Shown here in pieces: positions 15,745 to 16,794 of a DNA stretch of 41,145 nucleotides. Source of the DNA: a virus (lineage: Duplodnaviria > Heunggongvirae > Uroviricota > Caudoviricetes); IMG/VR virus record IMGVR_UViG_2531839440_000003, positions 1-41,145 of that record, one strand, 5' to 3'. Each line of letters begins with the position of its first letter. Position 1 is the first letter of the stretch. The notes below the pieces were generated by a model. It worked only from the letters and a program-made list of their open reading frames with translations, had not been told where the DNA came from and made no database searches. Both the position numbers and the translations under genes were made by a program.

Positions 15745-16794
15745 ATGATTAATACTGTAAAAATATCCAGTTGTGAGTTAATCAACGCTGATTGCCTGGA
15801 ATTTATCCAGACCTTACCGGAAAATTCTGTCGATCTGATAGTCACAGACCCGCCATACTTTAAAGTGAAGCCCGAGGGCTGGGATAACCAGTGGGAGGGC
15901 GACGATGATTACCTGAAATGGCTGGACCAGTGTCTGGCGCAGTTCTGGCGGGTACTGAAGCCTACCGGAAGTCTTTACCTGTTCTGTGGTCATCGCCTGG
16001 CATCTGACACCGAAATCATGATGCGTGAGCGCTTTAATGTGCTGAACCACATTATCTGGGCGAAGCCGTCCGGACGCTGGAACGGGTGCAATAAGGAAAG
16101 TCTGCGGGCGTATTTTCCGGCAACAGAGCGCATTCTGTTTGCAGAACATTATCAGGGACCGTATCGCCCGAAAGATGATGGCTATGTGGCACAGGGGCGC
16201 GAGCTAAAACAGCACGTCATGGCCCCGCTGATTTCTTACTTTCGTGATGCGCGTAAATCACTGGGAATAACGTCAAAACAGATAGCGGAAGCCACCGGAA
16301 AGAAAAACATGGCTTCGCACTGGTTTGGTGCCAGTCAGTGGCAGTTACCGAACGAGGGTGATTACAATAAATTGCAGGCGTTGTTTGCGCGTGTTGCGGC
16401 AGAAAAACATCAGCGCGGGGAACTGGAAAAGCCACACCACCAGCTGGTCAGCACATACAGTGAGCTGAACCGGCAGTATACGGAACTGCTGAGTGAATAT
16501 AAAAATTTGCGGCGGTATTTCGGTGTGACGGCGCAGGTTCCGTACACCGATGTCTGGACGCATAAACCGGTGCAGTACTATCCAGGGAAACATCCGTGCG
16601 AAAAACCGGCAGAAATGCTGCAGCAGATAATCAACGCGAGCAGTCGTCCGGGAGACCTGGTTGCAGATTTTTTTATGGGTTCAGGTTCAACGGTAAAAGC
16701 GGCGATGGCACTGGGGCGTTGTGCGATTGGTGTTGAGCTGGAGACCGGACGTTTTGAACAGACAGTCAGGGAAGTTCAGGATTTAATCGTTTGA
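15745..16794 (+). CDS. DNA amino-methyltransferase (N6-adenine or N4-cytosine, beta-class), orphan
   Basis: Motif IV VTDPPYF near N-terminus and AdoMet motif FFMGSGST near C-terminus; no restriction endonuclease partner evident. Confidence 0.85.
   Translation: MINTVKISSCELINADCLEFIQTLPENSVDLIVTDPPYFKVKPEGWDNQWEGDDDYLKWLDQCLAQFWRVLKPTGSLYLFCGHRLASDTEIMMRERFNVLNHIIWAKPSGRWNGCNKESLRAYFPATERILFAEHYQGPYRPKDDGYVAQGRELKQHVMAPLISYFRDARKSLGITSKQIAEATGKKNMASHWFGASQWQLPNEGDYNKLQALFARVAAEKHQRGELEKPHHQLVSTYSELNRQYTELLSEYKNLRRYFGVTAQVPYTDVWTHKPVQYYPGKHPCEKPAEMLQQIINASSRPGDLVADFFMGSGSTVKAAMALGRCAIGVELETGRFEQTVREVQDLIV

Follow-up and report, generated by a model that had tools for sequence, protein, structure and literature searches.

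An M.EcoGII-family adenine methyltransferase gene and its conserved leader RNA in the late region of a phiP27-like prophage

The virus record IMGVR_UViG_2531839440_000003 (IMG/VR; Caudoviricetes) was analysed over its full length of 41,145 nucleotides (nt), which is called the window here. Judged from the gene content read across it, the window is an apparently complete, lambdoid, phiP27-like myovirus prophage. It contains a gene for a 349-residue DNA methyltransferase, located behind a Q-like late antiterminator gene and immediately after a structured leader RNA. This gene probably encodes a non-specific adenine-N6 methyltransferase of the M.EcoGII type, which would be made late and in dependence on Q, would methylate progeny DNA against restriction and would be restrained by its leader. 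The gene belongs to a known family, has nothing unusual about it and by itself adds little; the leader and a neighbouring winged-helix gene are the more useful outcome. The features concerned are the following.

15745..16794, plus strand: gene for an M.EcoGII-family beta-class adenine-N6 DNA/RNA methyltransferase of 349 amino acids (ATG start; PF01555; identity to M.EcoGII; PADLOC MTase_II, E=8e-160)
15615..15661, plus strand: leader domain I, stem P1 (AUGGGC/GCUCAU) around the long hairpin P2 (alignments, structure counts)
15668..15744, plus strand: leader domain II, the irregular hairpin P3-P4-P5 (minimum free energy -61.4 kcal/mol, z=-3.2)
15397..15594, plus strand: gene for a 65-residue winged-helix protein (phrog_331, 'function unknown', E=1.4e-37)

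The placement of the open reading frame (ORF) in the first-pass annotation, which was made from the letters of the sequence, proved exact: the ORF begins with ATG and has 349 codons, and an in-frame TGA located 6 nt 5' of the ATG makes a longer version impossible. The protein matches the Pfam family PF01555 (N6_N4_Mtase) over residues 29-340 with E=7.9e-45 and 153.9 bits (cut-off 26.7). The DPPY motif at residues 35-38 is located on the N-terminal side of the FMGSG (FxGxG) motif at residues 310-314, and the target recognition domain (TRD) spans about residues 160-237. This order, together with the PF01555 match and the nearest structures, confirms the earlier assignment to the beta class. The closest solved structures are the beta-class enzymes RsrI, CcrM, MboIIA and DpnA, with matches that are split and cover the N- and C-terminal parts of the core without the central stretch of about 150 residues. 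The site-specific enzymes YhdJ, CcrM, M.RsrI and M.MboIIA have the catalytic core in common with the window protein, while these central 150 or so residues are unmatched, and the NCBIfam models of YhdJ and CcrM score far under their cut-offs (110 compared with 292 bits for YhdJ). The protein does not belong to the Dam-type (GATC) alpha class, in which FxGxG precedes DPPY; the sole match reported was PF01555, not PF02086.

The most informative comparison is with M.EcoGII, a beta-class enzyme of 349 residues from a prophage of E. coli O104:H4 C227-11, which methylates adenine in any context in double-stranded DNA, single-stranded DNA, RNA:DNA hybrids and RNA and modifies up to 99% of dA (PMC5778455). 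The window protein resembles M.EcoGII and M.EcoGI in its length, its beta-class motif order, its prophage location and its orphan status. It is identical to M.EcoGII at 321 of 349 residues (92.0%), with equal length, no gaps and no extra domains, and the TRD is covered by the comparison; 12 of the 28 differences are found within it. The reference sequence of M.EcoGII was taken from the machine-read supplement of PMC11551740, for which the raw comparison gave 317 identities in 350 positions. Between M.EcoGI and M.EcoGII, 16 of 349 residues differ (95% identity) (PMC5778455), and the recognition of M.EcoGI is likewise reported as non-specific (PMC4659465). The reconstructed ancestors Anc291 (about 83% identity to M.EcoGII) and SUPREM (about 69%) are still reported to be largely non-sequence-specific on RNA (PMC11551740). 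By its sequence, the window protein lies well within this experimentally sampled range of non-specific enzymes, and context-free adenine-N6 methylation would be by far its likeliest activity. The target specificity had been called unknown in the first-pass annotation; it can now be predicted as none, because the 92% identity to M.EcoGII includes the TRD.

In the lysogen M.EcoGII is not expressed, and its constitutive expression is deleterious (PMC5778455). The homologues of M.EcoGI and M.EcoGII are transcriptionally silent in lysogens and give no signal in single-molecule real-time sequencing under standard growth (PMC4659465). The methylome of a lysogen would therefore be negative even with a fully functional enzyme. 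The failure to detect a methylated motif attributable to this gene, which had been named beforehand as the result that would speak against the assignment, is invalid as a criterion, because a non-specific enzyme gives no motif and because the homologues are silent in lysogens. The NCBI name of the homologues, 'site-specific DNA-methyltransferase', is a generic family label. Annotation pipelines label such genes 'site-specific', and methylome surveys of lysogens will overlook them.

The leader of about 130 nt (15615-15744, plus strand) directly abuts the start codon of the methylase. Domain I is its most widely conserved part and is kept even in Photorhabdus. In domain II the 3' strand (UGAUCU) of the basal helix P3 ends at position -1, the base preceding the AUG. 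The conservation of the spacer between the winged-helix gene and the methylase is above that expected for non-coding DNA, with conserved blocks at -129, -73, -57, -39 and -5 from the ATG in some 45 genomic loci, including loci that have no winged-helix gene. Independent folds of 12 divergent copies resulted in an identical two-domain architecture.

The consensus structure was derived by majority vote among folds of the individual sequences; applied to the raw MAFFT alignment, RNAalifold recovered just 16 pairs and was rejected as a source. In an alignment of 43 sequences the consensus pairs in 94.8% of cells, compared with 29-41% in slid controls. Both sides are changed in 11 covarying pairs, compared with 4-7 in the slid controls, and none of 500 shuffles reached the observed covariation. 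The helix P3 is paired in 93.7% of cells, with four of its ten pairs covarying. A set of 55 distinct viral copies gave the same picture, with 96.7% of cells paired and 11 covarying pairs compared with 1-5 in controls; here the basal P3 pair beside the AUG itself covaries, being AU in 19, GC in 18 and GU in 5. In the window a covariance model found a single copy, at 15604-15750 (123 bits), and it also detected the copies of phiP27 (122 bits) and of locus L025, both of which are outside its training set. G-U pairs are frequent, as fits an RNA of the plus strand, and the minus-strand model scores 16-22 bits compared with 115-174; the element is therefore transcribed from the plus strand. When viral contigs were scanned with a signature of domain I, the methylase start was located 130-134 nt past the 5' end of the element in 113 of 120. 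No match with E<=1 was found in Rfam 15 for 14900-17400, and none credible with E<=10 for 15595-15760; a 2025 review of phage small RNAs contains nothing comparable to the leader.

Two other readings of this region were considered and rejected. A small ORF at 15609-15752, with a stop that overlaps the methylase ATG, could have provided translational coupling; it was discarded as coding sequence because its frame is not conserved, with stops that vary elsewhere and two loci that have no overlap. A two-state or pseudoknot structure (UGGGC with GCCCA; GCUCAU with GUGAGC) is compatible with the sequence in 95% of cells and has zero covariation.

Within about 14-20 nt of the AUG there is no Shine-Dalgarno-like sequence, and the bases of this interval are spanned by P3. 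On these grounds the simplest reading of the leader is a translational brake. In Gilliamella and in the viral contig L166 the AUG itself is located inside the basal helix. The leader is not found everywhere: simple motif and model searches did not detect it in Xenorhabdus, in several Proteus and Morganella loci or in L022. In Photorhabdus (L056, L047-L049; 4914-5006) domain I is almost intact and domain II is swapped for about 30 nt. At about 8300-8520 of L195 (minus strand) a divergent and complete leader, with a P3 of GAACAAA/UUUGUUC, is located ahead of holin-like and lysozyme-like ORFs, without a methylase. The survival of domain I in Photorhabdus and the L195 copy therefore suggest that the element may serve a purpose of its own, for instance in processing, stability or the binding of a factor.

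The wider survey covered 80 loci, in genera that range from Escherichia to Proteus, Morganella and Gilliamella, with homologues of 56-91% identity; their flanking genes were called and scanned against Pfam. The winged-helix gene is located 5' of the methylase in 58 of these 80 genomic loci and in 105 of 120 viral contigs, at a near-fixed offset and with any type of Q. The AlphaFold (AF2) model of its 65-residue product has a pLDDT of 91 and a fold of three helices and a wing. A Foldseek search with this model returned generic winged-helix matches only, none with E<=0.001 (dimerisation domains of O-methyltransferases, IclR/MarR regulators, SelB), and gave no support to a role as an m6A (N6-methyladenine) reader or as an RNA-binding protein. 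The winged-helix protein may help to restrain the toxic methylase. The methylase gene, the leader and the winged-helix gene are all under evident purifying selection across genera. The leader and its winged-helix partner seem to be new, and we found them described nowhere; the published work on M.EcoGII (PMC5778455) mentions neither a leader, nor a winged-helix partner, nor the position behind Q. The two elements are separable: Xenorhabdus loci keep the winged-helix gene with no leader detected, and several other loci have the leader without the winged-helix gene. In seven Xenorhabdus loci (L042, L045, L046, L051, L052, L066, L068; around 4989-5003) the codons GAA TAG come directly after the conserved ATG, and the apparent GTG start of the methylase is 12 nt downstream, which places a mini-ORF of two codons just before the gene.

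Three features upstream of the leader describe the transcriptional setting of the methylase.

14542..15084, plus strand: Q-like late antiterminator gene, DUF1133 / Phage_antitermQ (PF06576, E=3e-101; PF06530, E=2.9e-6; phrog_753 'anti-termination protein Q-like', E=9e-79)
15244..15278, plus strand: strong intrinsic terminator-like hairpin after Q, candidate tR' (dG -20.3 kcal/mol, z=-5.84, followed by U7)
15581..15607, plus strand: weak terminator-like hairpin and U-run over the winged-helix stop codon, just 5' of the leader (terminator scan)

With two terminator-like hairpins between Q and the gene, transcription is expected only in the presence of Q after induction. We infer late-only, Q-dependent transcription with good motivation, and it agrees with the published silence of M.EcoGI and M.EcoGII. 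The hairpin at 15581..15607 is retained in other loci through compensatory changes, and its U-run is variable in the alignment. Homology to sequenced phages starts at about 15262, at the 3' edge of the post-Q terminator. It follows that the cassette is mosaic, a module combined with varied upstream units of Q and terminator. The Q allele of the window has no close match among the phage collection; for a presumed link of DUF1133 to the Q of phage 21, no supporting paper was found. The E. coli genome AST205 (L001) has 81 additional bases between Q and the winged-helix gene relative to 15085-15396 of the window. The segment 15170-15275 (plus strand) gave sub-threshold Rfam matches to isrK (E=0.08) and AgrB (E=0.09), which were not counted as evidence; its position corresponds to the short pR'-tR' transcript, from which other phages derive regulatory RNAs such as StxS.

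The statement that no restriction enzyme is adjacent, and that the methylase is therefore an orphan, is borne out in the window and beyond it. The neighbours in the window are all phage genes (DUF968, RusA, the Q-like gene, the 65-residue winged-helix gene, tRNAs, TerB, DUF3927, holins and an M15 endolysin), and a scan of 175 proteins encoded beside the methylase in the 80 loci showed no restriction-enzyme family. PADLOC reported for the window only the type II methyltransferase model and weak generic HNH matches to a terminase-associated HNH gene 2.9 kb downstream. The methylase does not form part of a type II restriction-modification system, as a cognate endonuclease gene is not adjacent. 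The description of the methylase as the first large late gene holds for its position in the late operon behind Q and is qualified by the conserved 65-residue gene between the terminator and the methylase.

The gene is common: of 5426 complete E. coli genomes searched by megablast, 2642 have a relative, which in 164 genomes is at least 99% identical. Relatives also occur in 50 phage records that include phiP27, phages carrying Stx2a, Stx2c and Stx2d, and 1720a-02. The methylase gene L24 of phiP27, the 'DNA methylase' genes of the Stx2a, Stx2c and Stx2d phages and the gene of 1720a-02 have 82-89% nucleotide identity to the window gene (88% for 1720a-02). A 'very similar' homologue of M.EcoGII in phage 1720a-02 was named by Murray et al. 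(PMC5778455). Among the 76 upstream proteins scanned, products of the nearest large genes called, all four Q families were represented: PF06530 (19), PF06576 (10), PF03589 (9) and PF06323 (7). Downstream, the 80 loci contain holins, lysozymes and toxin-antitoxin modules (HicAB, RelB, ParE, HigB), and Tad2-like (Thoeris anti-defence 2) genes are first or second after the methylase in eight loci. The family occupies the 'moron' slot between Q and the lysis genes, which is also the stx slot. The Tad2-like neighbours are compatible with a counter-defence slot, and the interval looks like a hotspot of counter-defence and moron genes. The methylase is dispensable in many relatives: in L132 and L195 it is lost or replaced. 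Phages of the 933W type are not known to carry it.

In the mechanism proposed here, the gene would be transcribed only once Q has rendered RNA polymerase resistant to termination after induction. The enzyme, with S-adenosylmethionine as methyl donor, would methylate adenine at N6 and show scarcely any preference for sequence, if any at all, and the progeny DNA would be heavily adenine-methylated prior to packaging. Such DNA would resist m6A-sensitive type I, II and III restriction enzymes in the next host. The leader and the lack of a nearer Shine-Dalgarno-like sequence would probably hold translation low or conditional, matching the toxicity of the enzyme. Counter-restriction is the role assigned to the family in the literature (PMC5778455, PMC12707154), and on this basis the phage self-protection put forward in the first-pass annotation is retained; the present data give no support to its other suggestion, an epigenetic methylase.

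Several points weigh against this mechanism. The late promoter (pR') was not located, and a consensus scan found no plus-strand sigma-70 site in the interval from Q to the methylase; of the two terminators the second is weak, with a fold z of only -0.66. Exceptional occlusion of the start region had been expected, and the computation says otherwise: opening -18..+5 costs 11.6 kcal/mol, which ranks 7 among 31 genes of the window (mean 9.1, standard deviation 3.3). This value is unexceptional, and strong translational occlusion is therefore not demonstrated. The L195 copy, having no methylase, indicates that the leader is perhaps not methylase-specific. As regards the enzyme, three reading errors in the M.EcoGII reference had to be corrected, the erroneous strings being present in none of 120 natural homologues, and the 28 substitutions could in principle shift the preference of the window protein. 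Blanket m6A exposes DNA to m6A-dependent type IV enzymes (PMC11037411). An IS1 transposase ORF is located in the tail-fibre region of the window, and the prophage may thus be unable to adsorb or to yield infectious particles.

Other activities and purposes of the protein have to be considered. It might be an orphan methyltransferase with a recognition site of its own, since most PF01555 enzymes are site-specific, the homologues are named so at NCBI and 12 substitutions affect the TRD. This is improbable in view of the identity of 92% to a non-specific enzyme and of the non-specificity kept by M.EcoGI and by ancestors at about 69-83%; the NCBI name is generic. It is also quite unlikely that the main role is regulation of the phage cycle (packaging, replication timing or gene expression) or shutdown of the host by hypermethylation. 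Some phage orphan methyltransferases do act in the phage cycle, for example the P1 Dam enzyme at pac sites (PMC12707154), and the damage to the cell by constitutive M.EcoGII would fit a shutdown of the host. However, a mark that ignores context can convey little information for regulation, the gene can be lost or replaced, as in L132 and L195, and its slot is common to anti-defence genes. RNA could be the physiological substrate, with m6A placed on phage or host transcripts, on the adjacent tRNAs or on the leader itself. In vitro M.EcoGII also acts on rA, both in RNA and in RNA:DNA hybrids, and tRNA genes adjoin in Escherichia; yet RNA is the poorer substrate in vitro (PMC5778455) and the tRNA genes are missing from nearly all non-Escherichia loci, which makes this extremely unlikely. 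Finally, the gene could be an intact-looking relic in a defective prophage with no present function in the strain, as the IS1 transposase ORF and the truncated prophage of AST205, with the same gene, might indicate. We regard this as very unlikely: the ORF is full-length with all motifs, purifying selection is seen on the gene, the leader and the winged-helix gene across genera, and defective prophages are still inducible and complementable.

The function of the leader is a separate matter. Rather than a brake, it might be a processing or stability element of RNase III type, a switch that responds to a ligand or protein, or a self-contained small RNA that happens to abut the gene. The coaxial stem of domain I, of about 20 bp, is kept where domain II is replaced in Photorhabdus, and the complete element of L195 is located about 60 nt before lysis genes. 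The alternative pairing fits nearly all cells, and opening the start region takes no unusual energy. On the other hand, this alternative pairing has no covariation, the spacing between element and methylase is fixed in nearly all the viral contigs scanned, the base pair beside the AUG covaries and the AUG of Gilliamella and L166 is inside the basal helix. A function other than that of a brake is, on balance, somewhat unlikely.

The proposed brake may be compared with the regulation of mom in phage Mu, in which the zinc-finger protein Com binds the mom mRNA and activates translation of this toxic modification gene (PMC6483171; Hattman 1999, cited in PMC3299994). Mu-like prophages of Haemophilus and Neisseria have non-specific adenine methylases at the mom position behind com homologues, with regulation thought to be alike (PMC3299994). 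The window cassette is similar in that a late, toxic modification gene has a small gene upstream and a folded mRNA at its start codon. A conserved structure that abuts the start codon is present (P3 ends at -1; 93.7-95% of cells pair), while just upstream a winged-helix gene, and not a Com zinc ribbon, is found in the window; a Com-like ORF occurs only in L166. The systems differ also in that the leader and the winged-helix gene are separable among loci, and translational activation by either has no support. In L166 (about 10775-11100, plus strand) a Cys-rich ORF of 36 residues is located between the leader and a methylase of 62% identity. It resembles Mu Com (Pfam Zn_ribbon_Com, PF10122, E=2e-4, below the cut-off), and its AUG is within an 8-bp helix, GUCAUAAG/CUUAUGAC. 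This Com-like ORF supports post-transcriptional control of the methylase family.

These comparisons allow us to propose, tentatively and with somewhat less than even confidence, that lambdoid methylases of the M.EcoGII family carry a new cis-regulatory safety catch that acts after transcription on a toxic, context-free enzyme. It would consist of the two-domain leader joined to the start codon, usually with the 65-residue winged-helix protein, as a lambdoid counterpart of com-mom that possibly responds to a factor or ligand through the invariant UGGGC/GCCCA segments. If the leader and the winged-helix protein control expression, this would account for the safe carriage of an enzyme that is poisonous when expressed by thousands of lysogens among the enterobacteria. 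It would also add a new covariation-supported RNA motif to the late-operon region that houses the Shiga toxin genes. M.EcoGII is a commercial reagent for chromatin footprinting, and the leader and its partner would then offer a compact natural off-switch for M.EcoGII-based tools.

Other non-specific enzymes of mobile elements are less close. Hia5 and Hin1523 of Mu-like prophages are non-specific m6A enzymes of temperate phages, silent in laboratory conditions (PMC3299994). They are thought to be restrained until lytic growth and are located at the position of mom, an anti-restriction modification gene (PMC3299994). Unlike the window protein they have the opposite motif order (PMC5778455), and their operon is the late operon of Mu, where a com homologue precedes them, and not a lambdoid Q-dependent one. 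M.EcoGIX and M.BceJIII (PMC7736820) are relaxed adenine methyltransferases of mobile elements, protective on entry; they differ as plasmid leading-region genes and as enzymes specific for single strands. An identification of the family as M.EcoGIX was rejected, as M.EcoGIX is plasmid-borne according to the literature. The window protein scores 77.5 bits against the 226-residue NCBIfam model PRK13699, far below the cut-off of 244. We take this model to represent the plasmid methyltransferase type of M.EcoGIX and M.BceJIII.

The gene order of phiP27, of the Stx2a, Stx2c and Stx2d phages and of 1720a-02 is the same as in the window: a small winged-helix gene (L23 in phiP27), a 150-nt spacer, the methylase and the ileZ/arg tRNAs. 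Two further features follow the methylase in the window.

16844..17093, plus strand: three tRNA genes, CAT, Arg-TCG and Arg-TCT (ARAGORN; Rfam tRNA)
17107..17135, plus strand: terminator-like hairpin that ends the segment of methylase and tRNA genes (dG -15, z=-2.6)

The tRNA genes are directly 3' of the methylase and correspond to the ileZ/argN/argO set of Stx-type phages. The CAT tRNA is a tRNA-Ile according to the annotation of a near-identical E. coli genome, and Ile, Arg and Arg are also found in phiP27. They belong to the methylase module in Escherichia only. In phiP27 and the Stx2 phages the Q gene is different, and stx is located 3' of the tRNAs, where the window has TerB and DUF3927. 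These TerB-family and DUF3927 genes (17269-17843, plus strand) fill the stx position of phiP27 (stx2e) and of the Stx2 phages.

Ahead of the cassette the window contains an integrase fragment, an exonuclease, a repressor, replication genes, DUF968, RusA and the Q-like antiterminator. The methylase cassette is followed by two holins, the M15 endolysin, HNH, terminase, portal, capsid, sheath, tape measure and baseplate genes, and from Q onward all genes are on the plus strand. The IS1 transposase ORF (38823-39326, minus strand) is located between a 349-residue phrog_8291 ORF and a tail-fibre assembly gene. The closest genome is AST205, which has a truncated version of the prophage with a locus 99.9% identical. 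The DUF968 protein (13109-14167, plus strand) has a second match to PF16784, a family of putative HNHc nucleases (E=4e-7), and its gene is located before RusA in a NinG-like position.

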